64,000 bases of DNA from Fimbriiglobus sp. (GCA_043744775.1 JAYTUC010000027.1:11940-75939); one strand, 5' to 3'. Shown: positions 12,600 through 40,059, numbered from the stretch's first letter. The notes: generated from the letters alone by a model not told the origin. Numbers and translations are program-made.

Positions 12600-12614
12600 C
12601 TCCGGGAGTGCGCC

Positions 12615-22391: not shown

Positions 22392-23951
22392 TCACCGGCT
22401 CGTCAGCGCGCGGAACGGGGTGACGAAGTCCTCGACGCGGTAGCCGTTGAGCCGCGACTGCCGGGACTGCCAGTCGAGCGCGGCCGGCTCCCGCGCCGCG
22501 CCGGCCGGCCGGGGGCGCACGGTCGTCGGCAAGACCTTCGCTAGCGCCGCGAGTCGGTCGGCGGGCAGGCCGTCGGAGAGGGCGACGTAGCCCCACGTCA
22601 GCACCAGCGCCGCCTCGGGGTCGCGGTTCGCCTCGCCGAGCGCGGCGTCGCCGAGGCGTTGACGCAGCGCGGCGACTTGCGCCTCGGAGTACAGCGCGGC
22701 GGGGTGGCGGCTCTGCACGTCGAGGAAGGCGTCGCACCAGCGGACGAGATCGGCCGCGGCGATTCGCACCGCGTCGGCGTTGCCGAACGGCCTCTCGACC
22801 GCGGCCGCGCTCAGGGCGTCCCACTTCGTCGCGAACTCGGCCGCCGACGCCTTCAGGGTCGCGTCCGGCGATGCGGCGGCGTGCGCGGCGACGACCCCGG
22901 CGAGCGCCGCGATCGACGGCCGCAGGGTCGGCCGGCCGGGTGCGCCGTGCTTGGGGCCGCGGGCCTGGCGGTCGCTCGGCGTCTTCAAGTCGTGGTGGCA
23001 CGCGGAGCAGTCGAAGCGGGCGAAGTCGAGCCCGTCGCGCGTCGAGTCGGTACCGGTTTGCAGCATCGTCGCCTCGGCCCGCAGCGCGGCGACCGCCCCG
23101 GCCGCGAGTTCCCGGCCCGCCGGGACCTCGTCGCCCGCCGGGTGGGAGTGGTAGCGCCGCCAGAGTTTGCCGGGGTCTTCGGCGAGCTTGTCGAAGTGCG
23201 GCAGCTTCGCCGTCGGTGCCCAGTGGCGCGGCTCGCCTTCGAGGTACGTCGCCAGCTCGAACGGCGGCAGCGGCGGGTGCCCGGCGGCGTACAGGTCGTG
23301 CGTCACGACGCGGCCCAACTCGTCGCTGCCGACGTGGCAGGTCGCGCACAGCCTCGCCTTGACCGCCGGGTCGCGCAAGTCGCGCAGACCGGCCTTGGCC
23401 TTCGCCGCCGGGTCGAGCTTGCGCCACGGCAGCGACTTCACGCCAGCGGCGTCGGTGCGCTCCTCGTAATGCTGCGTCTGCCACGCCTTCGCGGTGCCGT
23501 GGCAGGCCGTACACGACACGCCGTCCTTCGTGTCGAAGCGCGTGACGTGGTCGTGGACCGGCGGCGTGGCGTCGTCGCCGGCGAGCGTATCGACGGCGTG
23601 GCAGGTGGCGCAGTGGGCCGCGACCCAGACGGCGTCGTGGCCCTGCGGCAACCGCGAGAGCATCTTGCGGCCGAGTTCGTTGGTCATGCCGCGGTACGCC
23701 GCCGAATGCGGGTCTTCGCGCGGCCAGGTCCGGCCTTCGCTCAGCAGGATGAACTCGTGCGAGTCGTAGCGCGTGGCGAACGGGTGGCTCGCGGCGTCGG
23801 CGACGGTGGAGTTGTGGCACGCCACGCACGAGGCGACGCCCGCCGCCCCCAACGGCTCGGCGCGCGGCTCCGGCGGCGCAGCCAGGCCCAGCCCGGCGAC
23901 CGCGAGTGCCAGCAGTGTCGCCCCGATGGCACTCATGCGTGTCGTCGTCAT
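22392..23951 (-). CDS. Periplasmic pentahaem c-type cytochrome (paralogue 1)
   Basis: Signal peptide. Five CxxCH motifs (CVACH, CATCH, CTACH, CATCH, CSACH). Shared 'THDLYAAGHPPL' block. ATGA overlap with the upstream paralogue. Confidence 0.85.
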   Translation of the reverse strand: MTTTRMSAIGATLLALAVAGLGLAAPPEPRAEPLGAAGVASCVACHNSTVADAASHPFATRYDSHEFILLSEGRTWPREDPHSAAYRGMTNELGRKMLSRLPQGHDAVWVAAHCATCHAVDTLAGDDATPPVHDHVTRFDTKDGVSCTACHGTAKAWQTQHYEERTDAAGVKSLPWRKLDPAAKAKAGLRDLRDPAVKARLCATCHVGSDELGRVVTHDLYAAGHPPLPPFELATYLEGEPRHWAPTAKLPHFDKLAEDPGKLWRRYHSHPAGDEVPAGRELAAGAVAALRAEATMLQTGTDSTRDGLDFARFDCSACHHDLKTPSDRQARGPKHGAPGRPTLRPSIAALAGVVAAHAAASPDATLKASAAEFATKWDALSAAAVERPFGNADAVRIAAADLVRWCDAFLDVQSRHPAALYSEAQVAALRQRLGDAALGEANRDPEAALVLTWGYVALSDGLPADRLAALAKVLPTTVRPRPAGAAREPAALDWQSRQSRLNGYRVEDFVTPFRALTSR

Positions 23952-25423
23952 CGCGAGACCCTTGGGCCGGCCGTGGCGTCGTGGAGTGTGCGGAAGTGGC
24001 TCAAAATGTCGCCGCGGACCTCGCCCAGACCGGCGGGGCTGTCGGAGCGCACGCCCTTCGCGTCCGCGGGGAAGGCGAGGCGGCCGGCCAGCCCGCGCAC
24101 CGGCGCGGCCCAGCCCGGTGTGGTCGCGCGGCCGCCGCCGGCGTGGTACATCGCGGCGCAGCCCAAGTAGCGGGCGGCGAGCGCGTCCCAGTCGGCGTCG
24201 GCGAGCGCGGCGCGGTCGGGGGTGACGGCCGCGGACGCCAGGGCGTTGGCGACGCGGCGGGGCACGTCGGGGGGCAGGCGCGGCAGCCCACCGTCCTCGG
24301 CCGCCTGCAGCTGCGCGAGCCAGGCGTCGAACTCCGCGACGGCGTCGGCGGCCAGCCCGGCGACCGTCGCCGCCGCGGGGCTACGCTTCGCCATCTCGCG
24401 TTGCAGTGCCGTGAACGCGGTGAGCTTGGGCGGGGTCGTGCCGGGGTAGGCCGCCGGGGCGAACTCGGCCGCGACGCCGACCGTCGTGGCGACGCCGACC
24501 TCCCAGCCGGCCAGCGCCGCCGGCTTCGGGGCCGCGGCGACTCCGGTGGTCTTGCCGAGGCTCTGGTGGCAGGCGTAGCAGCTCTGCCCGGCGAACTCGG
24601 GCCACGGGGTCGCCGACCCCGCCACGGCGGCGCGACTCGCCCGGACGCGCAAGAGTTCCGTCGCCGCGCGGGCCGTGACCGCCTGCCCGGCGAGCCAGGC
24701 CCGCGCCTCGAAGTCGGGCTGCGGCGTCTTCTCGACCCAGTGCCTGGCGTACCCCGTGTCGAAGTGGAAGCGGGTCGCCTCGAAGCCGAGCCGCGGGTGG
24801 CCGGCGGCGATCAGGTCGTGGTTCACCTCACGCGTCGCGTCGCCGACGTGGCAGCCGACGCAGCCGCCGGAGCGGCCGACTTGCCCTTTCGTCGGCGCGA
24901 AGCCGTAGCGCTCGAACTTGGCGCGGGCCGACAGCGCCGACCAGCCCGGCGCGACGTGGGCGGCGTTCCACTTCTCCGCCGCGCCGTGGCAGCCTCCGCA
25001 GCCGACCCCGTCGGCGTGCCACTCGGGGGCCGCCCCCGGCACGGCGTGGCAGTTGAGGCAGCGGGCGTCGCGATGCGGCACGAGGTTGAGCGCGGTGCCG
25101 ATCCGGTGGGAGACTTCGTTGAACAGCACGCGGTGGGCGCGGGCGTGCGGGTCCGACGGCCGGCCGGGGAACGCCTCCGCGGCCCACGTCGAGTGCTCGC
25201 CACCCTTGGTGCCGGCCGGGCCGCCGTGGCACGAGTCCGACGCGCACGAGCCGCTCGACAGTTGCCGGAACGCCGCCGCTTCGCCGCCGTAAGGCTTGCC
25301 GGCAGCCTGCGACTGTTGAACGCGCGGCTCGGGCGGGGTGGCGGTGAGTAGCGGCAAGCCGACGGCCCCGCCCACGACCGCGAGGGGCCAGAACAGCAGC
25401 AGGCAGCGTAGGCGTCCGGTCAT
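23948..25423 (-). CDS. Periplasmic pentahaem c-type cytochrome (paralogue 2)
   Basis: N-terminal hydrophobic leader. First motif CASDSCH is CX4CH, followed by CLNCH, CGGCH, CVGCH, CYACH. 'NHDLIAAGHPRL' block. Confidence 0.85.
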   Translation of the reverse strand: MTGRLRCLLLFWPLAVVGGAVGLPLLTATPPEPRVQQSQAAGKPYGGEAAAFRQLSSGSCASDSCHGGPAGTKGGEHSTWAAEAFPGRPSDPHARAHRVLFNEVSHRIGTALNLVPHRDARCLNCHAVPGAAPEWHADGVGCGGCHGAAEKWNAAHVAPGWSALSARAKFERYGFAPTKGQVGRSGGCVGCHVGDATREVNHDLIAAGHPRLGFEATRFHFDTGYARHWVEKTPQPDFEARAWLAGQAVTARAATELLRVRASRAAVAGSATPWPEFAGQSCYACHQSLGKTTGVAAAPKPAALAGWEVGVATTVGVAAEFAPAAYPGTTPPKLTAFTALQREMAKRSPAAATVAGLAADAVAEFDAWLAQLQAAEDGGLPRLPPDVPRRVANALASAAVTPDRAALADADWDALAARYLGCAAMYHAGGGRATTPGWAAPVRGLAGRLAFPADAKGVRSDSPAGLGEVRGDILSHFRTLHDATAGPRVSR

Positions 25424-25454: not shown

Positions 25455-26828
25455 TCACCGGCGGGCGTCGCGCAGGGCTTCGTCGATCGCCAAGTTCGCG
25501 TCGCGCGGCGTCACCCGGAAGCGCTCAACGGCCACACGGACCGCGGGGGTCTGTGTGCCGGCCGAGCGCTCCAGGGCGGCCAGGCCGCGCAGCACGCCGT
25601 CGGCGTCCAGCCCCGCGGCCGACGGCGGGAAGACGCGACGCGCCAGCGGCCGCAGGTCGCCGTCGGCGTGGGCCAACTCTTCGCGCCACGCCGCGAGTTG
25701 GCCGGCCGCGGCGGTCGCCCGCCGGGTGACTTCGGCCGGGGCGGGGGCGCGGCTCGTGCCCATCCACGCGGCCAGCGACGCGAGTTCGGACGCCTCCGCC
25801 AGCGTGCCGCCGGTCAGCGGCCAGAGCGACTGCCAGCGCGTCGCCCCGAGTTTGCCGCCGGCGACGGGGCGCTCGGGGCCGGGGATCGCGTGGTGGCAGC
25901 CGCGGCAGTCAGACTCCGCGAGTTCCGGCCAGACGCCGTGGGCGGCGCGGTCGGCCAGCAGTCGCGCCGACGCCTCGCCGCAGGCGGCGCGGCCGACAAG
26001 CCACATGCGCCACGCGGCGTCCGGCCCGCGCGGCGGCTGGCCGGGGCGGGTGCGGTACTTCTCGGACCAGTGCGGCGTCAAGCGGAGTTGGGCCTCGGCG
26101 AAGTCGAAGCCGTCGAGCCGGGGGTGGCCGGCGGCGATCATGTCGTGGTTCATGTCGCGCGGAACCGCGGAACCCCCGACTTCGGCCGGCGCGCCGACGT
26201 GGCAGCCGGCACAGGCGGCGGCGCGGCGGCCGAGGTCGTACAGTGGGGCCATCCCGGTCGCGGCGTAGCCGGCGGCGCGCTCGGCCGGCGTCCGCCAGGT
26301 GGTGTGGTCGCGCAGGTAGCGCTCGGCGTGGCCGTGACACGACTCGCACCCGATCCCTTGGGCCAACGCCGCCTCCGGGACGCCGGGCCGCCCGACGAGT
26401 TGCGGGTCGGTGTGGCAAGCCAGGCAGCGATCGTACTCGGTCGCCTTCAACAGCCCGCCCGACGGCTTGGGGACATTCAGACGCGCCATCATGGCAATTG
26501 CGAGCGGCAGTTTTAACGCGTCGTAAGCCTGGGTGTGGGGGTCGCGGGCTTGCCAGTGCGTCGCCGCGCCGGCGTAGCCGTGGGCGTCGATCGGCGAGGT
26601 CAGCGACGGGGCGGGGCCGCCGTGGCAGGCCGTCGCCGCGCAGCCGGCGTTGCCGACGCGCTGACTCGCGGCGGCGACTTCAGGGGGGACCCGGTCCGCG
26701 GCCGGGGGCGTGGCGGCGGGGACCTCGGAGTGCGACTTCAACGGCGACAGGGCGAGCGCGAGCAGGCCGCCGACGGCGACCACGCCGCAGGTCAGGTATC
26801 GCGTCCGTCCGTCGAGTCGCCGCGCCAT
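25455..26828 (-). CDS. Periplasmic pentahaem c-type cytochrome (paralogue 3)
   Basis: Start ATG 26828 ('MARRLDGRTRYLTCGVVAVGGLLALAL'). First motif CAATACH is CX4CH, followed by CLACH, CESCH, CAGCH, CRGCH. 'NHDMIAAGHPRL' block. The upstream part of ORF to 27293 looks non-coding. Confidence 0.8.
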   Translation of the reverse strand: MARRLDGRTRYLTCGVVAVGGLLALALSPLKSHSEVPAATPPAADRVPPEVAAASQRVGNAGCAATACHGGPAPSLTSPIDAHGYAGAATHWQARDPHTQAYDALKLPLAIAMMARLNVPKPSGGLLKATEYDRCLACHTDPQLVGRPGVPEAALAQGIGCESCHGHAERYLRDHTTWRTPAERAAGYAATGMAPLYDLGRRAAACAGCHVGAPAEVGGSAVPRDMNHDMIAAGHPRLDGFDFAEAQLRLTPHWSEKYRTRPGQPPRGPDAAWRMWLVGRAACGEASARLLADRAAHGVWPELAESDCRGCHHAIPGPERPVAGGKLGATRWQSLWPLTGGTLAEASELASLAAWMGTSRAPAPAEVTRRATAAAGQLAAWREELAHADGDLRPLARRVFPPSAAGLDADGVLRGLAALERSAGTQTPAVRVAVERFRVTPRDANLAIDEALRDARR

Positions 26829-26984
26829 CGTCCGCCCCGTGCCCAGGGATTGCGTTGTGCCTAAGCTACCAGGCTCCCCGCGCCGTGGCGCACGCGATCC
26901 CCCGTTTCGGCGTGCGAATTCGACCGCTTCCTGATACAAAGACCGTCCAGCCATCACACCCTGCCAGTTTACGAGGACGGCCCC

Positions 26985-27824
26985 TTGCGCTTCGGTTCGG
27001 CCAAGTCGGTGCGCGGCCGCGTCGGCCGGCTCGTCGCCGCGGCGACCGTGGTGGCCGCCGCGCCGCTCGCCGCGGTCTACGCCGCGTCGCTCGTCGGCCT
27101 CGGCGACTGGCCGCCGCGGCCGAGTGCGCCGTTCGGCTTCACTTGCGGCGTCGCCGTCGGGGCGATCGTGCTCTTCGAGATGCTGTTGGCCCCGCGTAAG
27201 TGGCTGCGCGGCCGGCGACTCGGGGCGACGCGGGTCTGGATGAAGGTCCACGTCTGGCTTGGCCTGGTCGCGTTGCCGCTGGTGTTGCTGCACGCCGGCC
27301 TCGGCTTCGGCGGGCCGCTGCCGGCCGCGACGCTCACACTGTTCTTACTCGTCTTCGCCAGCGGCGTCTGGGGCCTGGCCCTGCAACAGTGGCTGCCGCA
27401 GAAGTTCCTCACGGACATGCCGGGCGAGGTGATCGTGGCGCAAATCCCCGTGCTCGCCGACGCCGCGGCGGCCGAGGCGGCGCGGGTCGTCGCGGCCTTG
27501 CCCGGCCCGCCGCGCCTTGAGGTGGCCGGCTTCCGCGACGCCGACCTGCTGCCGTACCTGCGCTCCGGGCGTGGCTCGCGCGCGGCCCTGGCCGGCCGCG
27601 CCGAGGCCGACCGGCGCTTCCGGGAGCTGGCCGGCACCGCCACGCCCGAGGCGGCCATCGCGTGGGCGCGCCTGCGCGAACTCGTCGATGTGCGGCGGCA
27701 GTGGGACGCCGTGGCGGCGTACCACTTCTGGCTGCACAACTGGCTGCTGATTCACCTGCCGCTGTCGGTGGGGATGACCGCGCTGATGGTCGTCCACGCC
27801 GTCCGCGCCCTGAAGTACTGGTGA
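26985..27824 (+). CDS. Integral membrane protein, putative dihaem b-type cytochrome (two H-x13-H helices)
   Basis: TTG start 6 nt after GAGGA. About five hydrophobic helices. 'KVHVWLGLVALPLVLLHAG' and 'LIHLPLSVGMTALMVVHAV' each have two His separated by 13 residues. Its stop lies 3 nt before the decahaem gene. Confidence 0.55.
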   Translation: MRFGSAKSVRGRVGRLVAAATVVAAAPLAAVYAASLVGLGDWPPRPSAPFGFTCGVAVGAIVLFEMLLAPRKWLRGRRLGATRVWMKVHVWLGLVALPLVLLHAGLGFGGPLPAATLTLFLLVFASGVWGLALQQWLPQKFLTDMPGEVIVAQIPVLADAAAAEAARVVAALPGPPRLEVAGFRDADLLPYLRSGRGSRAALAGRAEADRRFRELAGTATPEAAIAWARLRELVDVRRQWDAVAAYHFWLHNWLLIHLPLSVGMTALMVVHAVRALKYW

Positions 27825-27827
27825 CCC

Positions 27828-29435
27828 ATGCCGCGTTCCCCGAGCCGCGACCTGAGCGACCGCCACCACGCCAGCCGGAGTTACTTCCGCCGGCCGGACG
27901 CCGTCACGCGCTGGAAGTGGCTCCTCTCCGCGTTAGCGTTAGGTGTCGCCTTCGCCTGGGCGACGGTCGAAGTCGCGCGGCCTTCCGCGGCGACCCCGGC
28001 GCACACGCACGGCATGTTGACCAACCCGCACGCCGCCTGGGACAGCAACTGTCAGGCGTGCCACGTCGCGTCGTCGCCGGGCGACTTCCTGGCGAACCCG
28101 CTCTCGGCCGCGCACCCCGACCAGCGCTGGCGTAACCTGACCTGCGACAAGTGCCACAGCGGCCCGGCGCACCAGGCCACGCCGTTGACCGCCGACGCGG
28201 ACTTCCACAACCAGTGCGCGAACTGCCACCACGACCACGGCGGCCGCGGCAACTCGCTCGTGAAGCTGACCGACGCCCACTGCGCGACCTGCCACGGCGA
28301 CCTCGCCCCGCACCGCGCGCCGGGGGCGAGTCCGCTGCCGGCCAACCGCGTGACCAACTTCGCCACCGACCACCCCGACTTCGGCCCGCTCAAAACATCG
28401 CCCGAGACGCGGACGCTCAAATTCAGCCACGCCCAGCACATGACCCCCGGCATCCCGCACACCGCCGACGGCAAGGAACTGCTCACGCCCGAGCGTACGA
28501 AACTGCTGTTCGGGGAGGCGGTCGCCAAACGCTACGGCGTGGAGCGGCCCGACGCCGCGCCCGTGAAACTGGAGTGCGCGTCGTGCCACCGCCTCGACGC
28601 CGGCGTCGGCACCGCGAAGCACGACGAGTTGAGCCGCCGACTCACGGCAGGGCAGGTGCCGGCCAAGGCGGTTCTGCCGGCTCGCGCCGCCGGCGACTAC
28701 TACCTGGGCGTCAACTTCGAGGCGAGTTGCCGCGACTGCCACCCGCTCACCGCCAGCCCAAAGGCGTCCGGCGGGCAACTCGTCGAGGCGTTCGACCTGC
28801 CGCACCGGGCCACGCGTGCCAAGCTCGTGGACGAGGTCCGCACCGGCTACTTGAAGCAGCTGCTCGCCGCCGAGCACCGCGACCTCGACGTGCCGGCCGG
28901 GCTGCAAGTCGGCCGGCAACGCCCGCCGACCGACGCCCCGGACACGCTGCGCTCGGCCGACGACCGCTACGCCCACGCCGAAGTCGGCCGGCTGTTCGAG
29001 CCGCCGACTGCCGGGCCGGTGCAGGGCTGCGTCAAGTGCCACGACCTCGACAGCCAGGGAGTCAAGCCGGTGCCCGACCGCACCGTCTGGCTGCCGCACG
29101 CGAAGTTCAACCACGCCGCGCACCGGGCGAATGCGTGCGTGGAGTGTCACCCCGGCACCGCGGCGTCGTTCCCGGCCGCGGGCGCGAAGTGGGCCGAGAA
29201 GGAGCCGGTGCAGATCCTCGGCGTGCAGTCGTGCCGCGCCTGCCACGCCCCCGCCGGCACGCCGGTGAACCTCGCCGACGGCAAGACGCTGACGGGTGGC
29301 GGGGTGAAGCACGCCTGCACCGACTGCCACAGTTACCACAACGCGACGCACCCGCTGCAAGGCCGCGGCGCGCCGGCCCGCGCCCCCGCCGCGCCACTCT
29401 CGCTCGGTGACTACTTCCACGGCGGCAAGCGTTAG
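27828..29435 (+). CDS. Membrane-anchored decahaem c-type cytochrome
   Basis: N-terminal anchor 'WKWLLSALALGVAFAWATV'. Ten CxxCH motifs: CQACH, CDKCH, CANCH, CATCH, CASCH, CRDCH, CVKCH, CVECH, CRACH, CTDCH. Confidence 0.85.
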   Translation: MPRSPSRDLSDRHHASRSYFRRPDAVTRWKWLLSALALGVAFAWATVEVARPSAATPAHTHGMLTNPHAAWDSNCQACHVASSPGDFLANPLSAAHPDQRWRNLTCDKCHSGPAHQATPLTADADFHNQCANCHHDHGGRGNSLVKLTDAHCATCHGDLAPHRAPGASPLPANRVTNFATDHPDFGPLKTSPETRTLKFSHAQHMTPGIPHTADGKELLTPERTKLLFGEAVAKRYGVERPDAAPVKLECASCHRLDAGVGTAKHDELSRRLTAGQVPAKAVLPARAAGDYYLGVNFEASCRDCHPLTASPKASGGQLVEAFDLPHRATRAKLVDEVRTGYLKQLLAAEHRDLDVPAGLQVGRQRPPTDAPDTLRSADDRYAHAEVGRLFEPPTAGPVQGCVKCHDLDSQGVKPVPDRTVWLPHAKFNHAAHRANACVECHPGTAASFPAAGAKWAEKEPVQILGVQSCRACHAPAGTPVNLADGKTLTGGGVKHACTDCHSYHNATHPLQGRGAPARAPAAPLSLGDYFHGGKR

Positions 29436-29459
29436 ACTCCGACCCCAGGGCCGACCGGC

Positions 29460-31574
29460 ATGATCATTCAAGACCTGCGCGACATCCAGCACGAGTACGG
29501 CTACCTGCCGGACGCGGAGCTGCGCGCGCTGTCGCGGCGGATCGAGATGCCGCTGGCCCGCATCGAGGAGGTCACGACGTTCTTCCCCGCCTTCCGGCTC
29601 GAACGCCGCCGGCCGGCGGCCGTCGAGGTGCGCGTCTGCCGGGACATGACGTGCCACCTGCGTGGGGCACCGGCGCTGATTGCCGCGGGGCAGAAAGTCG
29701 CGGCGGAGTTGAACGCCGACGGCGGGGATGTCGAGGTGACCGGCGTGTCGTGCCTGGGCCGCTGCGACCGCGCGCCGGCCGTCTGGGCGGAGCGGCAGCC
29801 GATGCCCGACAAGGAGCACGCCTGGGTCTACGCCGCCCCCGACGCCAAGCGGCTCGAGCGGATCGTCCGCACCCTCGCCGCCGGTCAGCGGCCGGAGCCG
29901 GACCCCGACGAAGCGTACAAGCCGGCGGGGAACTTCCTCACCGGGGCGCTCGACGTGTACGCCCGCAACGGCTGGCCGCGCGACTACCGCGCCGTGCGCG
30001 GCTTCGCGGAGACGCTCGTCGAGAAGCGGCGGCGTTGCGTGCCGCGGCCGCCGCTCGTCGATGGGCAGCCGCTGCAAGGCCCGGCGCTCGACGCCTACGT
30101 CCGGGAGGCGCACCCGTGGCTGTGGAAGCTCAACGAGTCGCGGCTCGGCGGCATGGGCGGCGCGGGGGCACCCGCCTACCAGAAGTGGCTCGACGTGTGG
30201 GGCCAACGCTCGCCGTTCGACGAGGACGCCGGGGCGCGGCCCGCGCTGGCGGACACCAAGCCGACGCTCTTCGACAAGTACGTCGTGGCCAACGGCGACG
30301 AGAGCGAGCCGGGGACGTTCAAGGACCGCGAGATCATGCAGCGCACGCCGCACCTGATTGTGGAAGGTGTCATCCTCGCGGGCCTGTTCGCCGGGTGCAG
30401 CTCCGGGTACATCTTCGTCCGCCACGAGTACCACGAGCAGGTCAAAGTGTTGCGCGAGGAGGTCGTCCGGGCGGAGGCGATGGGGGCGTGCGGGCCGAAC
30501 GTCTTCGGCTCCGGCCGCGCCTTCCCCGTCGAGGTGATCGAAAGCCCCGGCGGCTACATCTGCGGCGAGCAGACCGCGCTCATCGAGGCGATGGAGGGGC
30601 GGCGGGCGCAGCCGCGGAACCGACCGCCGGACATCACCTCGAACGGCTTCCGCGACCGGCCGACGATCCTCAACAACGTCGAGACGCTCGCCTGGACGCC
30701 GCTGATCGTGCTGACCGGCGGGGCGGCGTACTCCGGCGGCGGCTGGAGGGTGCCGGCCACGCCCAAGCTCGTCGAGAAGCCGCCGCGCTTCGGCGGCCGC
30801 CGGCTACTCTCGGTCAGCGGCGACGTGAAGCGCCCCGGCGTCTACGAGGTGCCGATCGGCCTGCCGCTGGGCGAACTCTTCGGCGGCCCCGACTACTGCG
30901 GCGGCGTGCTGGGCACGCTCAAAGCGGTGGCGACTTCGGGGCCGTCGGGCGGGATTCTGCCGGCGAAGTTCCCGCTGCCGCCGGACTTCCACGCGAAGTT
31001 CGCCGAGCAGTTGGGCCGCAAGAAGGACCGCGCCCGCAAAGACGGCGACGCCAAGCGGGCCGAGGCGGTCAAGGCCGGCAAGGAGTACCGCGAGCCGGCC
31101 GAGGAGGCGTACTCGCTCGAGGAGTGGTTCGTCGCCACGCACCTGCCTGCCGGGGCCACTCACTTCGACCTGGCGACGGCACCCATCGACTTGAAGTTCT
31201 TCGGCCTGATGGCTGACCTCGTCGGGCTGCCGGTGTCGCCGCTCTTGGGGGCCGGCATCGTCGTCTACGCCGAGGGCGCGGACATCCTCGACCAGGCGGT
31301 TTGCTTCACGCGCTTCTTCCGCAACGAGTCGTGCGGCAAGTGCGTGCCGTGCCGGCTGGGGGCGGAGAAGCTCGTGCGCATCGGCGAGTCGCTGCTGGCG
31401 GCCCGCCGCGCCGGCGGCAACGCCGAGGTCGCCGCGGTGCGCTCCGACATCAACGACGTGGCCTGGGCCTTGACGCAAACGTCGATCTGCTCGCTGGGCA
31501 CTTCGGCGGCGACCCCGCTGGCGTGCGCCCTGACGTACTTCCCCGACGAGGTGGCGAATGGCCGAGCCGAATGA
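29460..31574 (+). CDS. NuoE-like (2Fe-2S) / NuoF-like (FMN, NADH, 4Fe-4S) fusion protein
   Basis: N-terminus 'LRDIQHEYGYLPDAELRALSRRIEMPLARIEEVTTFF...VCRDMTCHLRG...CLGRCDRAP' is NuoE-like. 'VVANGDESEPGTFKDREIM' and 'ESCGKCVPCRLG' are NuoF-like. Confidence 0.85.
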   Translation: MIIQDLRDIQHEYGYLPDAELRALSRRIEMPLARIEEVTTFFPAFRLERRRPAAVEVRVCRDMTCHLRGAPALIAAGQKVAAELNADGGDVEVTGVSCLGRCDRAPAVWAERQPMPDKEHAWVYAAPDAKRLERIVRTLAAGQRPEPDPDEAYKPAGNFLTGALDVYARNGWPRDYRAVRGFAETLVEKRRRCVPRPPLVDGQPLQGPALDAYVREAHPWLWKLNESRLGGMGGAGAPAYQKWLDVWGQRSPFDEDAGARPALADTKPTLFDKYVVANGDESEPGTFKDREIMQRTPHLIVEGVILAGLFAGCSSGYIFVRHEYHEQVKVLREEVVRAEAMGACGPNVFGSGRAFPVEVIESPGGYICGEQTALIEAMEGRRAQPRNRPPDITSNGFRDRPTILNNVETLAWTPLIVLTGGAAYSGGGWRVPATPKLVEKPPRFGGRRLLSVSGDVKRPGVYEVPIGLPLGELFGGPDYCGGVLGTLKAVATSGPSGGILPAKFPLPPDFHAKFAEQLGRKKDRARKDGDAKRAEAVKAGKEYREPAEEAYSLEEWFVATHLPAGATHFDLATAPIDLKFFGLMADLVGLPVSPLLGAGIVVYAEGADILDQAVCFTRFFRNESCGKCVPCRLGAEKLVRIGESLLAARRAGGNAEVAAVRSDINDVAWALTQTSICSLGTSAATPLACALTYFPDEVANGRAE

Positions 31575-34386
31575 CGAGCTGACCCGCGGCCGCGACGAGG
31601 AGTCGGTCTTCGCCCGCGGCGAGAACGACGAACTCGTCCGCCGCGAAAAAGCCACCCGCGACCAGTTCGCCCGGACCGTCACCGTCAAGATCGACGGCTA
31701 CGCGGTCACGGTGCCGCAGGCGGTCCCGAAGACCGACGCCCGCGGCAACCCGCTGCGCGCCCCCGACGGCGGCCTGGTGCCGCGCAACTCGACCATCTAC
31801 GACGCGGCGATGAAGCTGGCCCGCGACGGCGCGTGGGCCGAGAGCGAGCTGCCCGAGCGCATCCCCCTGCTGTGCCACCAGCCGCACCTGCACCCGGTCG
31901 GCGTCTGCCGCATGTGCGTCGTGCAGATCCAGCAGATCAAGCGTGGGACGGCGCGCACCGAGCGGAAGTTGCTGCCGGCGTGTCAGCACATGGTCGCCGA
32001 GAACATGGTGGTGACGACCCGCGCCGGCTGGCCGGGCCACGAACCCGGCGAGAAGGCCCGCCTCGTCGGCGAGGCGTGCGCCAAGGCGGCGACCGACTTC
32101 GAGGCCGATTTCGCCCGGCGCGGCGGCGACCCGGAGGCCAAGCCGGCGGCCCTCGCGGCGGCGCTCACGAAGGCCGAGGCGCGGGCCGGCGACGGCGTCG
32201 AGAAGTTCGCCGCGAACATCCGCCGCAGCACCGGCCTCCTCGCGGAACTCCTCCTCGCCGACCACGCCCGGCCCGAACTCTCCGCGGTGCGCCGCCACGA
32301 GGACGAGTTGACCGCCGTCGCCAAGGTCGTCGGCGTCAGCGGCCCGCGGCCGCGGCTGGCGCGGCCGGCCGACGCCCCGTCGCGCAACGCCGCCCCCGGC
32401 GAGCGCTCGCGCCGCCTGAGCCTGCCGATCGCGGCGACGGTGATCGAAGACGAGCAGTTGGCCGACCCCGCCGCGCAAGTCGCCTGGGCGGGCTGGAACA
32501 AGCTCATCGACGAGGCGTTGCCGTACTCGTCGCGGACCGTCGTCGTGGATCACGACCGCTGCATATTGTGCGACCGCTGCGTGCGGTCGTGCGCCGACGT
32601 GAAGCCGTTCAAGGTCATCGGCCACACCGGCAAGGGCTACGAGACGCGCGTGAGTTTCGACCTCGACGCGCTCATGGGAGACTCGTCGTGCGTGCAGTGC
32701 GGCGAGTGCATGACCTCGTGCCCGACGGGGGCACTCTCGCTGCGCCGGCGGGTGCAGCCGCGGGCCTGGGACGACTCGCCGGCGGCGATCGCGCAGAACC
32801 CCAACACGCCCTTCCCCGACGGCTCCGGCTTCCTCGACGCCGACGAGATGCGCGACGTGTGGCTGAGTTACAGCAGCCCGACCCGCGGGCCGCAAGTCGT
32901 CTACCCGTTCCGCGCAGTACCGTTCTCGTACCTGAAGTGGAACGAGGGGGCGGTGCGGCGCTGGGAGGTCGCGCCGGGCACCGAGCGGGTGCTGTGCACC
33001 GAGGGCGAGTACGCCACGACGGCCTTCCTGACGCAGGGCAACGGCGACTTCGCCATCTACGTCCGCGGCACCGGCCCCGTCAAGAAGCCCGGCCTCTTCA
33101 AGCGCCTCTTCGGCGGCGGCGAGGCGGCGGACGGCGGCCTCGGGCGCAAGGTCCACACCGCCGGCGGCGACGAGTTCCTCATCGGCGAGATGAGCTGCCT
33201 GACGCACCGGCCGCGCACCGCCTCGGTCGTCGCCATCGCTCCGGCGGACAACCCGCGCCTGGCGCTCACGGCCGACGGCCGGGGCGTCGTCGCGGTCGCC
33301 GGCGCGGCGGGGCCGGTGGTCGTCTACGAGGTGACGCGCAACCTGCTCGACGTGATGCAGCGCTCCGCGGCGATCCGCGAGGACATCGCGGAGGTCTACT
33401 CGCAGCGGGCCGTGCAGTCGTGCGTGTCGAAGGGCCTGATGTTCGCCACGCTCGCCGACGCCGAGAAGGCCGCCGTGACGCGCTTCCTGCTGGTCAGCGG
33501 CAAGCTCGAACTGCGGCAACTCGACGCCGGCCAGGCGCTCGTCGCCGAGGGCGACTTGGTGGGCGACGCCAGCTTCTTCTACGTCGTGCGGCTCGGCACG
33601 TTGCGCGTGTTCAAGGGCGAGGCCGGCCGCGAGCGCGACCTGCGCCTACTGGGGCCGGGCGACAGCTTCGGCGAGGTGTCGATGCTACCCGGCGGCGAGG
33701 GCGTCCGCACGGCCAGCGTGGCGACCCTCGACCCCGCCGAGGTCGTGCTGGTGCCCAAGGCGCTGTTCCTCCAGATGTGCGAGGCGTTCCCGGCGGTCCG
33801 GGCCGAACTCGAGCGCGAGAAGCGCGAGCGCGTCGCCGGGTCGCCGCCGCCGGCGATGCTGACCGAGTACGTCCGCCAGGGGCTTTACCAGGCGCAAAAG
33901 GTGTTGGCACTCGACCTGGTGAACTGCACCCGCTGCGACGAGTGTACCAAGGCGTGCGCCGACTCGCACGGCGGCCAGGCGCGGCTGCTGCGCGAGGGCT
34001 TGCGCTTCGGGGACTTCCTCGTCGCCACGTCGTGCCGGTCGTGCCAGAAGCCGTACTGCATGGACGGCTGCCCCGTCGATGCGATCCACCGCCGCGGCAC
34101 GAGCCTGGAAGTCGTGATCGAGGACCACTGCATCGGTTGCGGATTGTGCGAGCGCAACTGCCCCTACGGCGCGATCCACATGGTGCCGCGCGACGAGAGA
34201 AACGAGGCGGCGGCGGGGCACCCGGCCGGCGACCCGACCCGCACGGCCGCGCGGGTGGCGGCGAACTGCGACCTGTGCGACGGCGGCGAGCCGCGCTGCG
34301 TCGAGGCGTGCCCCCACGAGGCGGCGTTCCGGTTCACCGGCGCGGGGCTGCTGCAAGTCGTCGAGGCGCGGCGGGCGGGGGGGTAA
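31558..34386 (+). CDS. Polyferredoxin: NuoG-N-terminal-like 2Fe-2S/4Fe-4S + two cyclic-nucleotide-binding domains + DmsB/NrfC-like four-cluster domain
   Basis: NuoG-N-like: 'VKIDGYAVTVPQ', 'LLCHQPHLHPVGVCRMCVVQI', 'CILCDRCVRSC', 'CVQCGECMTSCPTGA'. CNB-like: 'GDEFLIGEMSCLTHRPRTASVVA' and 'GPGDSFGEVSMLPGGEGVRTASVA'. DmsB-like: 'CTRCDECTKAC', 'CRSCQKPYCMDGCPVDAI', 'CIGCGLCERNCPYGAI', 'CDLCDGGEPRCVEACPHEA'. 17-nt overlap with the upstream gene. Confidence 0.8.
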   Translation: MAEPNDELTRGRDEESVFARGENDELVRREKATRDQFARTVTVKIDGYAVTVPQAVPKTDARGNPLRAPDGGLVPRNSTIYDAAMKLARDGAWAESELPERIPLLCHQPHLHPVGVCRMCVVQIQQIKRGTARTERKLLPACQHMVAENMVVTTRAGWPGHEPGEKARLVGEACAKAATDFEADFARRGGDPEAKPAALAAALTKAEARAGDGVEKFAANIRRSTGLLAELLLADHARPELSAVRRHEDELTAVAKVVGVSGPRPRLARPADAPSRNAAPGERSRRLSLPIAATVIEDEQLADPAAQVAWAGWNKLIDEALPYSSRTVVVDHDRCILCDRCVRSCADVKPFKVIGHTGKGYETRVSFDLDALMGDSSCVQCGECMTSCPTGALSLRRRVQPRAWDDSPAAIAQNPNTPFPDGSGFLDADEMRDVWLSYSSPTRGPQVVYPFRAVPFSYLKWNEGAVRRWEVAPGTERVLCTEGEYATTAFLTQGNGDFAIYVRGTGPVKKPGLFKRLFGGGEAADGGLGRKVHTAGGDEFLIGEMSCLTHRPRTASVVAIAPADNPRLALTADGRGVVAVAGAAGPVVVYEVTRNLLDVMQRSAAIREDIAEVYSQRAVQSCVSKGLMFATLADAEKAAVTRFLLVSGKLELRQLDAGQALVAEGDLVGDASFFYVVRLGTLRVFKGEAGRERDLRLLGPGDSFGEVSMLPGGEGVRTASVATLDPAEVVLVPKALFLQMCEAFPAVRAELEREKRERVAGSPPPAMLTEYVRQGLYQAQKVLALDLVNCTRCDECTKACADSHGGQARLLREGLRFGDFLVATSCRSCQKPYCMDGCPVDAIHRRGTSLEVVIEDHCIGCGLCERNCPYGAIHMVPRDERNEAAAGHPAGDPTRTAARVAANCDLCDGGEPRCVEACPHEAAFRFTGAGLLQVVEARRAGG

Positions 34387-34399: not shown

Positions 34400-36067
34400 T
34401 CACTTCCCCGGCAGGTCGGCGACGCGGCTCCAGCGGTCGCGCGAGATCAGCGCCTCCATCGTGCGGGCCATGAGCGCGACCGCCGGGCCTTCCACGACCT
34501 CTTGGCTCTGGATCACGCCGCTGAGCACCTTTGCCGCCTCGGGCAGGCGGTGCGCCTCGTACAGGCTCAGCGCCTCCTCGTAGCGGGCCTTCGTGTCCGC
34601 CCAGCCCGGCTCGCCGCGCTTCACGAGTTCGTGCAACTGCAGCGGCTCGCCGATGTTGACCACGCGGACCTCGGCGAGCCGGCGCGACTCGAACTCGGTG
34701 CCGACGCGGTCGAGGGTCGATTGCGACACCACCAGCCGCGTCTTGAGGTACTTCGTCGCCCCCTGGACCCGGCTGGCGACGTTGACCACGTTGCCCAAGA
34801 CGCCGTACTTGAAGCGCTGCTCGGTGCCCATGTTGCCGACTTGGGCGACGCCGCTGTTGATGCCGATGCTGTAGTCGAGGACCTCAGGGAGGCGGCCGGC
34901 CCAGCGAGCGTTCAACTCGGGCAGGCAGTCGATCATCGCCAGCGCGGCGCGGCAGGCGAACTGGGCGTGCTCGGGCTGGTTCGAGGGCGCGCCCCACATC
35001 GCCATCATGCCGTCGCCGATGAAATCGACCACGACCCCGCGGTACTCCGCCACGCACCCCGTGAGGACGCCCATCGTGTCGCGCACCAGTTGCAGAGTCT
35101 GCACGGTGCCGAGCTTCTCGCTGAGCCGGCTGAAGCCGCGGATGTCGCAGAACAGCACCGAGACCTCGGCGTCGCGGGCCTCGTTGACGAGTTCGGGGTT
35201 GTCGATGAGTTGGCGGGCGATCTCGGGGGGGAAGAACTTCTCCATCATGCGGAGGTGCTGCCGCCGCGTGTCGATGTTGGCCTCGACCTTGACGCGCAAG
35301 AGGCCGTGGTCCACCGGCTTCGTCAAGAAGTCGTTGGCGCGGGCCTTCAGGCAGGCGGCGATCTTGTCGATCTCGTGCTCGCCGGAGACCATGAGCACGG
35401 GCACCTCGCTGCGGCCGCTGCCCTCGCGCATGGCCTTGAGCACGGTCAGGCCGTCGGCCTCGGGCAGGTTCAGGTCGAGCAGGATGAGGTCGAAGGTGAC
35501 CTTCTCGGCCAGGTGGATCGCCTGCCGGCCGTCGGCCGCCTCCCAGACCTCGTAGCCGAGGCCGCGCAAGAGGTGGCGCACGTCGCGGCGGCCCTCGTCG
35601 TCGTCGTCCACGACCAGGATGCGCGCCAGGTGCGGCCGCGGCGCGAGCGCCGGGCCGGCGTCGGGGCCGGCGTCGGGGGCGGCCTCGGCGGCCGGGGGCG
35701 GGGCGGCCGGCGGGGCCTCGCCCGCGTCGGGGCGGTCGATCTGGCGGTTGGCCTCCCAGCCGAGTTTGACGATGGCGGTCAGTTGGTCCGCGTAGCCGCC
35801 GGGGTGCTTGCGGTGCAGGATTTGCCCGCCGCCGAGCACGCGGTTGAGCAGCCCCTTGAGGTCGTGGCGGCTGAGGTTCGAGGAGTTGACCGCGGCCGCG
35901 AACCGCTCGGCGGCCTGCGCCATGCGCTCCGCCCCCGCGCGGAAGTCGGCCGGGGCGTCCGGGGGCAGCCCGGCCAGCAGCGCGGCGGCGCGCTCGACGA
36001 GCCGTGCGGCCAGGGGCGGCAGGAGGCCGGGCGTCTCCGGCGCGGCGGCGAGTGAGTCGGCGGGCAT
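34400..36067 (-). CDS. HPt-like / receiver / class III adenylate-guanylate cyclase fusion
   Basis: 'NLSRHDLKGLLNRVLGG' is HPt-like (H-x-LKG). REC: 'RILVVDDDDEGRR...DLILLDLNLPEADG'. Cyclase: 'VSVLFCDIRGFSRLSE...DFIGDGMMAMWGAP...GINSGVAQVGNMG'. Confidence 0.8.
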   Translation of the reverse strand: MPADSLAAAPETPGLLPPLAARLVERAAALLAGLPPDAPADFRAGAERMAQAAERFAAAVNSSNLSRHDLKGLLNRVLGGGQILHRKHPGGYADQLTAIVKLGWEANRQIDRPDAGEAPPAAPPPAAEAAPDAGPDAGPALAPRPHLARILVVDDDDEGRRDVRHLLRGLGYEVWEAADGRQAIHLAEKVTFDLILLDLNLPEADGLTVLKAMREGSGRSEVPVLMVSGEHEIDKIAACLKARANDFLTKPVDHGLLRVKVEANIDTRRQHLRMMEKFFPPEIARQLIDNPELVNEARDAEVSVLFCDIRGFSRLSEKLGTVQTLQLVRDTMGVLTGCVAEYRGVVVDFIGDGMMAMWGAPSNQPEHAQFACRAALAMIDCLPELNARWAGRLPEVLDYSIGINSGVAQVGNMGTEQRFKYGVLGNVVNVASRVQGATKYLKTRLVVSQSTLDRVGTEFESRRLAEVRVVNIGEPLQLHELVKRGEPGWADTKARYEEALSLYEAHRLPEAAKVLSGVIQSQEVVEGPAVALMARTMEALISRDRWSRVADLPGK

Positions 36068-36068: not shown

Positions 36069-36446
36069 TCAGCGGGCCTCGGGGGGCAGGTGCCGCGCGA
36101 CGACCGCCAGGAAGGCGTCGAAGTCGTACGGCTTGAACACGTAGTCGTCGCAGCCGGCCTCGCGCGCCTTGGCGATGGCGTTGCTCATCGCGTGGCCGCT
36201 CATCGCCACGACCGCCAGGCCGCGCGTGGCCGGGTCGGCGCGCAGCTCGGCGATGGCGCGCAGGCCGTCGCCGGGGCCAGGGCAGTCGATGTCCATGACG
36301 ACCAGCCGCGGCCGCTCGCGCTTCGCCGCCTCGAAGGCCAGGTGCGCCGCCGGCACCTCGACGACCTCGTGCCCGGCCCCGCCGAGCAGGTCGTTTAGGA
36401 GTTCGCGCTCGAACTCGCTGTCCTCGACAATCAGGATCTTCGCCAT
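36069..36446 (-). CDS. Single-domain CheY-like response regulator
   Basis: 'MAKILIVEDSEFERELL...LVVMDIDCPGPGDGL...MSGHA'. Size 125 aa. Its stop lies 1 nt before the cyclase start. Confidence 0.85.
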   Translation of the reverse strand: MAKILIVEDSEFERELLNDLLGGAGHEVVEVPAAHLAFEAAKRERPRLVVMDIDCPGPGDGLRAIAELRADPATRGLAVVAMSGHAMSNAIAKAREAGCDDYVFKPYDFDAFLAVVARHLPPEAR

Positions 36447-36452: not shown

Positions 36453-39400
36453 TCACCTCTCAAGGGGTCGGTCGTCGGGCGAGGCCGGGGGCTGCCACCC
36501 CGGCTGGAGTTTGCGGATGCGCGCGGCCATGTCGGTCCAGGACTTGACCGGCTTGACGACCCAGTCGTCCGCGCCGTTCGCCTTCGCCTTCTCCGGCTCG
36601 TCGTGCACACTTACGATGATGACCGGGATGTCGTGGGTGCCGGGGTCCTCCTTCAACGCGACCAGGATCGCCCAGCCGTTGAGCGAGTCGCGCAGCACGA
36701 TGTCGAGCAGGATCGCGCAGGGGCGGTAGTCCTTCACCGACTGGATCGCGGTCGTGTCCGAACTCGCCACGCGCACCTCGAAGCCGCGCTCGGTCAGCAT
36801 CGCCTCGGCGAGTTCGCGGTTGCTCGGCTCGTCGTCCACGACCAGGACGCGGCGGTTCACGGCCGCCGGCGTCACCGGCACGGGCACCGGGGCCGGCGGG
36901 GCGGTCGCCGGCTTGCCCGGCTCGTGGGCGTCGGCGAGCCGCGCGGCGAAGCTCGCCGTGAACGTGGACCCCAGGCCGAGGCCGCCGCTCTCGACGGTGA
37001 CGCGGCCGCCCATCTTCTCGCACAGCCCCTTGCAGATGACCAGGCCCAGCCCAGTACCCTCGCGGTTCAGCTCGCGGTCCTTGATCTTGCCGAACGGCTT
37101 GGGGTCGCGCACCTTCACCAGCTCGTCCTCCGTCATGCCGCGGCCCTGGTCGCGCACGGCGATGTGCACGAGGTCGCCGCCGGGGCCGGCCTCGCGGCGG
37201 CACTCGACGCGGATGGGGCCGTCCTTGGTGAACTTCGAGGCGTTGCCGATCAGGTTGTACAGCACCTGCTTGAGCCGCACGTCGTCCTGGAAGACCGTGC
37301 CGATCTCGGCGGGGCACTCGACCTCGAGGCAGTTCTTGCCCTCCTCGACCTTGGCGCGCATCTCGTTGGCGACCTTGCCGACGAACTCGGGCAGGTCGAA
37401 CTCGCGCGGGTTCAGGTCGAGCTTGCCCTCCATGATCTTCATCGAGTCGAGGATGTCGTTGACGAGTGCCGTGAGGTAGTTCATCGACTCGTAGATGCGC
37501 CGCACGCGCCGCTCGACCTCGGGGGCCGGCTTGCCGCGCAAGAGCATCTGCGTGTCGCCGCTAATGACGGTCAGCGGGGCGCGCAGCTCGTGGCTGACGT
37601 TGGCCATGAACATGTCCTTGGCGCTGTTGGCCAGTTGCAACTCCTTGTTGGTGCGGTCCTGGGCGAGGTTGGCGACGTTGAGCTTCTCGACGCTCTCGGA
37701 GAGCTGCCGCGTCTTGTGCTGCACGCGGCGCTCCAGCTCCTGCTGCCGCGCGAGTTCGCCGGTGATGTCGCGGACGATGCCGGTGTAGTGGGCCTGGCCG
37801 CCCAGTTCCAGCGGCGTGAAGGTCGCCCCGGCGGGGAAGGTCGTCCCGGCCGGGCGGCGGGCGGTCAGCAGGATGCGCGGCACGGTCCAGAAGTTCGCGC
37901 CGCCCAACGCGCTGTGCATGTCCGAGAACGAGGTGCCGGGGTCGGGCCGCGCGCCGTCGTGCTCGCCGGGCCTCACGAGGTAGCTGTGCAGGTTGGTGCC
38001 GATCACCTGGGCGGCCGGGCCGAGGCCGAAGAGCTTCGAGAACTTGACGTTGGCCTGGGTGATGTACCCCAGCGCGTCGATGACCACCACGCCGTCGGGG
38101 GCGTTGTTGAGGATGAACTCGAACTGGGCGGTGCGCTGCCGCAGGTGCGTGCTGAGGTTGCCCATCTCCCGGACCATCGTGCGGAAGGCGTCCGCGAGGG
38201 TGACGACCTCCTGCGGCCCCTTCGACGGCAACTCGTCGAGCGCCAAGAATGTCGAGGTGCCGTGCGGCCCGAAGGCGTCGGAGTCGGCCCCCGCGTCGCC
38301 GGCGGTGTGCTTGACGCGCTCGGCGAGCGACCAGGCGGCGTGCTTGATCTGCCGCAGCGGCCGCGTCACGTACCACGCCATGAGTAGCGCCACCGACCCC
38401 CCGCCGACGATGCTCAGCAGCACCACCATGACCAGGTGCGGGAAGGTCTCGATCCAGACGTCCTGCTTGATCTCCGCGACCGACGCCGTGACCACCAGCC
38501 GCGGGGCGGTGCCGTCGGGCTGCTCGCCCTCGAGGCCGGTCTGGAGGAGGGTGTACGAGCCGATGGCGTCGCGGTTGCTCACCGCCGGCCGCCAGCCGCT
38601 CTTGGCGTAGCCGAGTTGCGGCAGGTAGGTGGCGTAGTCGATCCGGTCCTTCGGCAGCCAGTCCTCGCCGAGGAGCCGGCCCGCCTCGGCCTGGGCCAGC
38701 CGCAACTCCTCCCGGTCAGAGTGCGACATCGCGAGGAGCATTTCGCCGTGAAGGTCGTCCGGCTCGGGGTCGAGGTCGTAGTAGCTCAGGCCGCGCCCCC
38801 CCCGCTCGCGCAGCGCCTCGTTGAACGCCTTGCACTTCGACTGCGCCTCCGCCAACTCCACCCGCGGCGGGACGCGGACCACCCGCTTCGTGGTGTAGAC
38901 GCGCTCGGGATCGACCGGCCCGCCGTCCGGGAGGTCGGAGGTGCGGAAGGTGTCCTTGCTGCTCTTGCGGGTGTCGGCCGGCGAGAGGTTCGTCACCGCG
39001 CCGGAGCAGAACACCCGGAGTTGACTGTCGCCCTTCAGGAAGTAGGGCTGCTCGGCCGGCGCGTTCTTGTCGAGGCGGCCCCCCGCGGACAGCGAGGGCC
39101 AGCGGAACTCCGTCTCGGGCGACCACTTCGCGAACGGCCTGGCCTCGGAGTCGAGGTGCGGGACGGCGACCGTGCCCGACGGGTGGTACAGGAACTCCGC
39201 CGGCGTCTTGGCGGGGTCGATCAGGTAGTACAGCACGCGCGGGGAGAGCCGCCACAGGTCGTCGAGGTAGTGCGTCACGTTGACCGCCGCCACCAGCGCC
39301 GGGCCGTCGGCCCGCTCCGCGAGCGGGCAGCTCAGGTAGACGCGGCACGTCCCCGTCTTGGCCGGCGCGAAGACGCGATTGGGGTCCGGTGCGTCGAGGG

Positions 39401-39878: not shown

Positions 39879-39984
39879 GGGGCCGCCGTCTGGGGTAGTC
39901 GGGGTGAGTCTGTGAGTGGCGTTAGTGTGCGGAGTCGCCCACGCCCGGTCAAGCGAATTGTCGTCGTGCAACCGTCGAAGTGGC

Positions 39985-40056: not shown

Positions 40057-40059
40057 AAG

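Follow-up and report, generated by a model that had tools for sequence, protein, structure and literature searches.

A conserved planctomycete gene module that may carry electrons from NADH to periplasmic multihaem cytochromes under cyclic nucleotide control

The stretch of DNA considered here, referred to as the window, comprises 64,000 nucleotides of Fimbriiglobus sp. (GCA_043744775.1, JAYTUC010000027.1:11940-75939). It contains a four-gene operon, g1 to g4, encoding a membrane protein with paired histidines, a decahaem cytochrome c, a NuoE-NuoF fusion and a polyferredoxin with cyclic nucleotide monophosphate (cNMP)-binding domains, and three pentahaem cytochromes are encoded divergently beside it. 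We give roughly even weight to the reading that this module is a cNMP-controlled transmembrane outlet for electrons, leading from reduced nicotinamide adenine dinucleotide (NADH) to the periplasm. The principle is known; what is new is the combination of membrane family, NuoEF/polyferredoxin donor, multihaem cytochrome c output and embedded cNMP control. Full-text literature searches found no prior description of the module. Its genes are the following.

22392-23951, minus strand: cC, pentahaem paralogue of 519 amino acids with a signal peptide, five CxxCH motifs and a C-terminal helical domain
23948-25423, minus strand: cB, pentahaem paralogue of 491 amino acids with one CX4CH and four CxxCH motifs
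25455-26798, minus strand: cA, pentahaem paralogue of 447 amino acids counted from the methionine at 26798, with one CX4CH and four CxxCH motifs
26799-26984: divergent intergenic region of 186 bp between the pentahaem operon and g1-g4, as defined by the two gene starts
26985-27824, plus strand: g1, membrane protein of 279 amino acids with a TTG start
27828-29435, plus strand: g2, decahaem cytochrome c of 535 amino acids
29460-31574, plus strand: g3, NuoE-NuoF fusion of 704 amino acids
31558-34386, plus strand: g4, polyferredoxin of 942 amino acids with cNMP-binding domains

The coordinates confirm the gene order and spacing given in an earlier note on this DNA, with gaps of 3 nucleotides between g1 and g2 and 24 between g2 and g3, and an overlap of 17 nucleotides between g3 and g4. 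The TTG start of g1 is backed by co-linear N-termini among its relatives. An open reading frame (ORF) at 25455-27293 on the minus strand, which seems to overlap g1, was rejected as an antisense extension of the cytochrome gene, whose true start lies at 26798. Long antisense ORFs overlie real genes throughout the window, and conservation of the sense gene makes tblastn show them as conserved in close relatives too. The GC content is about 72% and even across the whole window, and horizontal acquisition of the module was rejected because its GC content matches that of the surroundings. Scans of 26600-27100 for sigma-70-like promoters and for terminators were empty, and an Rfam scan of the whole window gave no match.

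In the proposed path, cytoplasmic g3 would oxidise NADH at flavin mononucleotide (FMN) and pass the electrons through its two clusters to the seven-cluster polyferredoxin g4, whose C-terminal four-cluster domain would deliver them to the cytoplasmic face of g1. Two stacked b haems in g1, the inner one on H89 and H257 and the outer one on H103 and H271, would carry them across the membrane to the anchored decahaem g2, and one to three secreted pentahaem cytochromes would then hand them to a periplasmic or extracellular acceptor. Such a path would regenerate NAD+ or supply reductant outside the cytoplasm, as an electron sink or reductant export and not as a coupling site. On bioenergetic reasoning, outward flow would be aided by the membrane potential, so that no proton-motive force would be built and the path would dissipate it. 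The cNMP domains of g4 sit between its NuoG-like and four-cluster parts and would place the flux under the control of cyclic AMP or cyclic GMP (cAMP/cGMP), here with the signal coming from an adjacent kinase-CheY-cyclase relay. Ligand-dependent repositioning of the four-cluster domain could act as an on/off switch, which is plausible but speculative. The cofactor motifs, their conservation, the predicted topology and the conserved gene linkage are shown; haem binding by g1, a physical complex of g1-g4, the direction of flow, the effect of cNMP and the acceptor are inferred.

The transmembrane step would depend on g1. The two H-x13-H helices attributed to it earlier were located as H89-x13-H103 in predicted transmembrane helix 3 and H257-x13-H271 in helix 5. 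These four histidines and H251 are invariant in an alignment of 21 close g1 relatives; among 65 diverse relatives, 30-47% identical to g1, H103, H257 and H271 are invariant and H89 and H251 occur in 90% or more. An AlphaFold2 model of g1, with a mean predicted local distance difference test (pLDDT) score of 82, has five long membrane helices and a helical insert of about 110 residues between helices 4 and 5, predicted to be cytoplasmic. Basic residues are concentrated in the N-terminus, the helix 2-3 loop and the insert, which the positive-inside rule therefore places in the cytoplasm. By this prediction H89 and H257 lie towards the cytoplasmic side of the membrane and H103 and H271 towards its outer side, the geometry of a transmembrane-stacked bis-histidine dihaem wire.

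The g1 protein of the window scores 14.7 bits against Ferric_reduct (PF01794; cut-off 28) and 16.2 bits against DUF4405 (PF14358; cut-off 26.7), and both sub-threshold matches fall on helices 2-3. Sub-threshold matches among its relatives are distributed as follows.

DUF4405: 19 of 21 close relatives and 42 of 65 diverse relatives, best E 8.9e-5
Ferric_reduct: 13 of 21 close relatives and 20 of 65 diverse relatives, best E 1.4e-4
Ni_hydr_CYTB (cytochrome b561): 1 of 21 close relatives and 8 of 65 diverse relatives, best E 1.7e-3
PepSY_TM: 5 of 21 close relatives and 3 of 65 diverse relatives, best E 4.9e-3

All four are families of transmembrane haem-b proteins. Every other family is matched by at most two of the 65 relatives, and those matched by more than three are haem-b membrane cytochromes only. 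The DUF4405 matches of the relatives share one region. For DUF4405 itself, haem b binding through four central histidines has been shown experimentally, and the family resembles MsrQ and PepSY-type wires (PMC11334425). By these resemblances g1 appears to be a remote, unclassified relative of dihaem-b transmembrane cytochromes and presumably binds haem. A profile search of g1 against PDB sequences gave nothing meaningful, and its longer relatives, checked for fusion partners, carry no extra domains. There is no Nitrate_red_gam match to g1 even at E<=10, nor any FAD_binding_8 or NAD_binding_6 match. The family is large, with 3397 cluster representatives at E<=1e-3 and 1430 at E<=1e-10 in an exhaustive profile search; relatives found by word search come nearly all from Gemmataceae and other Planctomycetota and are unannotated.

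The putative electron donor is g3, whose description as a NuoE-NuoF fusion is borne out by Pfam domains that all exceed their curated cut-offs: 2Fe-2S_thioredx for the NuoE part, and Complex1_51K, SLBB and NADH_4Fe-4S for the NuoF part. A glycine-rich FMN loop, the NADH-site motif GDESEPGTFKDR and an ESCGKCxPCR cluster motif can be read in its sequence, so that its cofactors by motif are a [2Fe-2S] cluster, an FMN/NADH site and a [4Fe-4S] cluster. The best solved relatives of g3 are HydB and NuoF. For g3 and the N-terminal part of g4, scores against NCBIfam equivalogs stay far under the cut-offs (NuoF 262 against 559 bits, HoxU 80 against 333). Neither g3 nor g4 has a signal peptide.

The g4 protein has motifs for one [2Fe-2S] and six [4Fe-4S] clusters, and the [2Fe-2S] and two of the [4Fe-4S] clusters are NuoG/HoxU-like. 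Pfam assigns it Fer2_4, Fer4_Nqo3, cNMP_binding and C-terminal multi-cluster ferredoxin domains, with no CCG, DNA-binding or other output domain. The cNMP-binding domain at 653-742 matches PF00027 at 69.7 bits (cut-off 27.5). Upstream of it, at about 445-600, lies a second, divergent cNMP-like domain with a weak match (Pfam E 0.009). In an alignment of 22 orthologues both phosphate-binding cassettes (G543/E544...R553 and G705...R717) are invariant, as are all 28 cluster cysteines, and the earlier reading of a 942-residue polyferredoxin with two cNMP domains is upheld. A four-cluster HycB/DmsB-like domain occupies residues 785-925, and its nearest solved relatives are electron-wire ferredoxins of the HycB3/HycB4 type.

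On the outer side, g2 has ten CxxCH motifs, a long basic N-terminus and one hydrophobic helix (about 29-49) that serves as anchor or signal, in agreement with its earlier description as a membrane-anchored decahaem. Exactly ten CxxCH motifs are found in 66 of 71 complete g2 orthologues. Against Mtrc-MtrF_II-IV, g2 scores 30.1 bits at a cut-off of 30. The three divergent pentahaem paralogues noted earlier are present with five haem motifs each, and orthologues of cC lie upstream of g1 at most loci. In two of the three paralogues the first haem has an invariant CX4CH motif (CAATACH, CASDSCH), and these CX4CH pentahaems give near-threshold matches to a Geobacter CxxxxCH/CxxCH domain family. Weak matches of cB go to cytochrome c554 and CX4CH-domain families, and searches of PDB sequences with g2 and cB found nothing. 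Each pentahaem protein has five invariant non-motif histidines for its five haems, in cB H93, H156, H202, H209 and H228, a pattern that suggests bis-histidine electron carriers and not catalytic haems. The pentahaems were also considered as NrfA-like catalytic enzymes, and this was rejected because five invariant distal histidines fit five bis-histidine haems. The AlphaFold2 model of cB has a mean pLDDT of 71 with a confident C-terminal helical domain; its fold search against PDB gave no significant match, with Algp7 and EfeO at the top at E of about 0.8. These two hint, very faintly if at all, that the C-terminal domain binds metal, and Pfam lends that idea no support. The window has no other CxxCH-rich ORFs.

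The linkage of these genes was followed through a scan of one genome per species, which yielded 80 g1 loci (labelled L001 and so on below), all of which were searched with the proteins of the window. The best match is 92% identical and comes from a Fimbriiglobus metagenome-assembled genome (MAG). All but three of the loci (77 of 80) are labelled Planctomycetota, the exceptions being L071 (Candidatus Cryosericum) and L042 and L048 ("bacterium"). Conservation of the gene order had been set beforehand as a refutation test, and the order is conserved: the next gene after g1 is g2 in 74 of the 75 loci that leave room for it, and among the 64 informative loci g3/g4 keep their linkage to g1-g2 in 58, representing at least 58 planctomycete species. 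The 64 loci are divided as follows.

46 loci: g3-g4 directly downstream on the same strand
7 loci: contig ends just past g3
4 loci: g3-g4 downstream and convergent, in MAGs labelled Pirellulales, Planctomycetaceae and Planctomycetia and in one Planctomicrobium
1 locus: order g3-g4-g1-g2, in a Tepidisphaeraceae MAG of class Phycisphaerae
2 loci: only a g4-like gene, directly upstream of g1 (L071, L081)
4 loci: no g3/g4 within 10 kb on each side, of Isosphaeraceae/Tundrisphaera type (L051, L055, L062, L078)

The linkage spans Gemmataceae, Isosphaeraceae, Pirellulales and Phycisphaerae. It survives four inversions and one permutation and is therefore strong evidence for a functional unit. The gene before g1 in L071 corresponds only to the cNMP and four-cluster half of g4, and L081 has a g4-like gene followed by g1 without g2. 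Judged by gene neighbourhood, g1 appears to be the hub of the module, with the decahaem on one side and the cNMP/four-cluster ferredoxin on the other. The full seven-gene module, including the three divergent pentahaems, also occurs in Frigoriglobus tundricola, an Isosphaera MAG and a metagenome contig. A cyclase gene lies directly before g1 in three of the four loci without g3/g4, and the g1 histidine motifs are kept there. In L051, L055, L056 and L078, g1 and g2 come after a cytoplasmic cyclase, which by eye resembles FHA at its N-terminus; L056 is uninformative for g3/g4, as its contig ends about 1.7 kb past g1. A DUF1570 protein follows g2 in L055, the sole such locus scanned with Pfam. 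Three loci labelled Candidatus Kuenenia or Candidatus Cryosericum (L029, L033, L071) have an organisation near-identical to that of loci labelled Gemmataceae or Planctomycetaceae, and these labels are probably binning or labelling errors in public records.

By its parts, the module appears to work like NOX and MsrQ and to be laid out like Tmc/Hmc and NarHI/FdnHI, and to be a member of none of them. The earlier note had not recognised it as Nuo, Mtr or another system of that kind; the closest analogues (NOX/MsrQ, MsrQ-like/NuoF-like clusters and Tmc/Hmc) were missing from its list. In NOX, STEAP and MsrQ, as proposed here, electrons run from NAD(P)H through a flavin and two b haems held by four histidines in two helices to an extracytoplasmic acceptor. 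The ferric-reductase domain is marked by four haem-ligating histidines in two helices, 12-13 residues apart, and the H-x13-H pairs of g1 show this arrangement. However, g1 has five predicted helices and a cytoplasmic insert of 110 amino acids whereas the known core has six helices, and it falls under the family thresholds of both the ferric-reductase domain and DUF4405. The donor also differs, being a separate NuoEF and a seven-cluster polyferredoxin where NOX has a fused dehydrogenase domain for flavin adenine dinucleotide (FAD) and NAD(P)H, and the acceptors are multihaem cytochromes c instead of the flavinylated proteins, O2 or MsrP of ferric-reductase-domain systems. The energetics would resemble those of NOX, MsrQ and Listeria-type electron export. 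MsrQ-like genes have been reported in 31 clusters with a NuoF-like gene, for which NAD(P)H was inferred as the cytosolic donor (Meheust et al. 2021, 10.1101/2021.01.07.425746). Unlike those clusters, the module has no ApbE or FMN-binding genes nearby; the genes between 18.9 and 44.5 kb showed neither ApbE nor an FMN-binding flavinylation substrate.

The layout of the module resembles that of several respiratory complexes. Tmc and Hmc of Desulfovibrio combine a periplasmic multihaem cytochrome c, a membrane dihaem b protein and a cytoplasmic iron-sulfur protein in transmembrane electron transfer, with the electrons carried inward. Their b subunit is of NarI/HdrE type and their iron-sulfur subunit is HdrD-like with CCG motifs, neither of which was detected here, and they have no NADH dehydrogenase module. 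NarGHI and Fdh-N likewise pair a HycB/DmsB-type four-cluster domain with a dihaem-b membrane protein; the module, in contrast, lacks a molybdopterin catalytic subunit, no similarity of g1 to NarI or FdnI was detected, and the b subunit of those enzymes is the quinone site. With NuoEFG, HoxEFU and HydABC the module shares all NuoE and NuoF cofactor motifs in g3 and a NuoG/HoxU-like N-terminal part of g4. It differs from them in the fusion of NuoE with NuoF, in a g4 that has cNMP domains and a four-cluster tail but no N5-type cluster, and in having no hydrogenase, formate dehydrogenase (FDH) or complex I partner here. The absence of complex I membrane-arm, Rieske, molybdopterin and NrfD-type domains claimed earlier was confirmed in the neighbouring genes scanned, and neither the operon nor these genes encode a complex I quinone module or membrane arm (NuoB/C/D/H/I, L/M/N). 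CymA, CbcL, ImcH and Mtr also provide an inner-membrane entry to a periplasmic multihaem chain that includes a decahaem; they are fed by quinol and lack an NADH module. No MtrB-type porin was confirmed here, and the outer-membrane barrel partner known from Mtr/Pcc has only a candidate counterpart, a neighbouring 748-residue protein with no family match.

The closest challenge to an outlet fed directly by NADH comes from quinone. Dihaem b subunits are quinone sites in Nar (NarI), Fdh-N (FdnI), cytochrome b561, hydrogenases and CbcL. If g1 were a quinone-reactive dihaem b like NarI, FdnI, CybB or CbcL, two half-reactions could share it, with a non-pumping NADH:quinone oxidoreductase formed by g3-g4-g1 and a quinol:cytochrome c oxidoreductase formed by g1-g2. 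The path without a quinone module proposed earlier from NAD(P)H to the decahaem accordingly stands as a complete parts list, but its quinone independence is not established, because g1 itself could react with quinone, as dihaem b subunits do. The sub-threshold matches of 8 of 65 g1 relatives to Ni_hydr_CYTB, a quinone-reactive family, point in this direction, as do the docking of known four-cluster proteins on quinone-reactive b subunits (NarH-NarI, FdnH-FdnI) and the four Isosphaeraceae loci with g1-g2 and no g3-g4 within 10 kb, where g1-g2 may have another electron source. However, no quinone-site motif could be identified in g1, and the stronger weak matches go to DUF4405 and Ferric_reduct, which are known as transmembrane wires and not as quinone sites (PMC11334425). 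The tight translational coupling of the four genes, moreover, suggests a single complex, and on balance the quinone reading appears unlikely, though worth serious attention. Electrons could also run the other way, with the periplasmic cytochromes oxidising Fe(II), reduced humics or another external donor and the complex reducing NAD+ in the cytoplasm. The parts list fits either direction and NuoEF-type modules are reversible in Hox, Fds and complex I, but inward transfer would oppose the membrane potential and need a donor well below -320 mV, a bioenergetic inference, and no energy-coupling subunit is present; such reversed flow is very improbable.

Regulation invites another reading, in which g1-g2 report the periplasmic redox state and g4 is a cNMP- and redox-responsive regulator. 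It draws on the cNMP domains inside g4, the two-component relay that adjoins the operon and the cyclase that adjoins g1-g2 even without g3-g4 in L055. An NADH/FMN site, nine iron-sulfur clusters in g3 and g4 and 25 c haems in all would nevertheless be excessive for a sensor, and g4 has no DNA-binding or other output domain, which makes a signalling device improbable. It is extremely improbable that g3-g4 are the diaphorase of a soluble hydrogenase or FDH encoded elsewhere and lie beside g1-g2 by coincidence. Among solved structures, g3 and the N-terminal part of g4 do come closest to HydB/HydA, HoxF and FdsB/FdsA-type subunits. Against this, linkage to g1-g2 outlasts inversion and permutation over two classes and four family- or order-level groups, and L071 keeps just the cNMP and four-cluster half of g4, still in front of g1. 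No hydrogenase or molybdopterin catalytic subunit was found near the module in the window, L001, L002 or L083, and no hydrogenase or FDH catalytic subunit accompanies the NuoEF/polyferredoxin pair in any inspected locus; membership of the pair in a known soluble enzyme of this kind had been listed earlier as a refuting condition.

Several observations weigh against the NADH-to-periplasm outlet itself. No terminal acceptor or enzyme is evident, and the lack of a NuoG N5-type cluster in g4 bears on the continuity of the cluster chain. No Pfam or NCBIfam model matches g1 at threshold. A Foldseek comparison of the g1 model with PDB returned only unrelated helical bundles (best E 0.48), probably dominated by the long cytoplasmic helices, and hhalign of the g1 alignment against a single unverified E. 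coli MsrQ sequence gave no match, a weak negative. To these are added the four loci without g3/g4 and a lone g4 paralogue at L084 9001-11631, 43% identical and with the same domain order, which stands beside a PSCyt1/PSCyt2/PSD1 protein without g1-g3. The g4 family is therefore not exclusive to the module, and cNMP-binding polyferredoxins appear from this locus to have other partners in planctomycetes.

Downstream of the operon, a four-gene minus-strand unit converges on g4.

34400-36067, minus strand: fusion of a response-regulator receiver with an adenylate/guanylate cyclase, ending 13 nucleotides from the g4 stop
36069-36446, minus strand: CheY-like single-domain response regulator
36453-40058, minus strand: hybrid histidine kinase with PAS, HisKA, HATPase_c and receiver domains
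40060-42306, minus strand: 748-residue protein with no family match and the C-terminus ...VVVTF

By its domains, the kinase-CheY-cyclase unit appears to be a phosphorelay with a cyclic nucleotide output, adjoining a protein with two cNMP-binding domains, and the receiver-cyclase fusion is a candidate source of cNMP for g4. A kinase and a receiver-cyclase likewise lie downstream of g4 in L004, and cyclases occur near the module in 10 further loci. The 748-residue protein, which has no Pfam or NCBIfam match, has homologues of 45-70% identity near the module in L006, L020, L071 and L072, distant loci included; its C-terminal ...VVVTF resembles an outer-membrane beta-barrel signature, so that it is possibly such a barrel and a potential partner of the module, a link that is tentative. 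At 42121-44469 on the plus strand lies a 782-residue protein with RTX-type calcium-binding repeats and a C-terminal HbpS-like (haem-degrading/haem-binding) domain, and an HbpS-like protein also lies just past the module in Frigoriglobus tundricola (L001 20493-20882). Very large LVIVD-repeat proteins, which may be cell-surface partners, stand beside the module in two distant loci (L071 12948-16754, minus strand, and L001 1-1816), with a cytochrome c3-like stretch in the L071 protein as well. The remainder of the window is ordinary planctomycete content, such as a sulfatase, type II secretion genes and, at 10881-13904 on the plus strand, PSCyt2/PSD1 (DUF1549/DUF1553) followed by DUF1501, a widespread planctomycete pair apparently unrelated to the module.

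Gemmataceae and Isosphaeraceae are regarded as aerobic heterotrophs, and we know of no extracytoplasmic redox metabolism in them. This view of their physiology would change if a conserved chain with as many as 25 c-type haems drew its electrons from NADH. Such a chain could supply reductant to the enlarged periplasm, or it could regenerate NAD+ by reducing iron, humic or other external acceptors found in peat and sediments. The g1 family has thousands of unannotated members and no Pfam model, and cNMP-binding domains embedded in a polyferredoxin would represent an unusual form of electron-transfer regulation that is directly testable. The module could also serve to test cleanly whether electron flow in bacteria from NADH to periplasmic cytochromes can avoid the quinone pool. 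In its strongest and more doubtful form, the proposal is of a quinone-independent NADH:multihaem-cytochrome-c oxidoreductase, so far confined to Planctomycetota and built on an unclassified dihaem-b family, whose iron-sulfur wire is switched directly by cAMP/cGMP and through which nominally aerobic planctomycetes would have a regulated electron sink outside the cytoplasm. If true, such direct switching would be the first example of allosteric gating of an electron-transfer chain by a second messenger.

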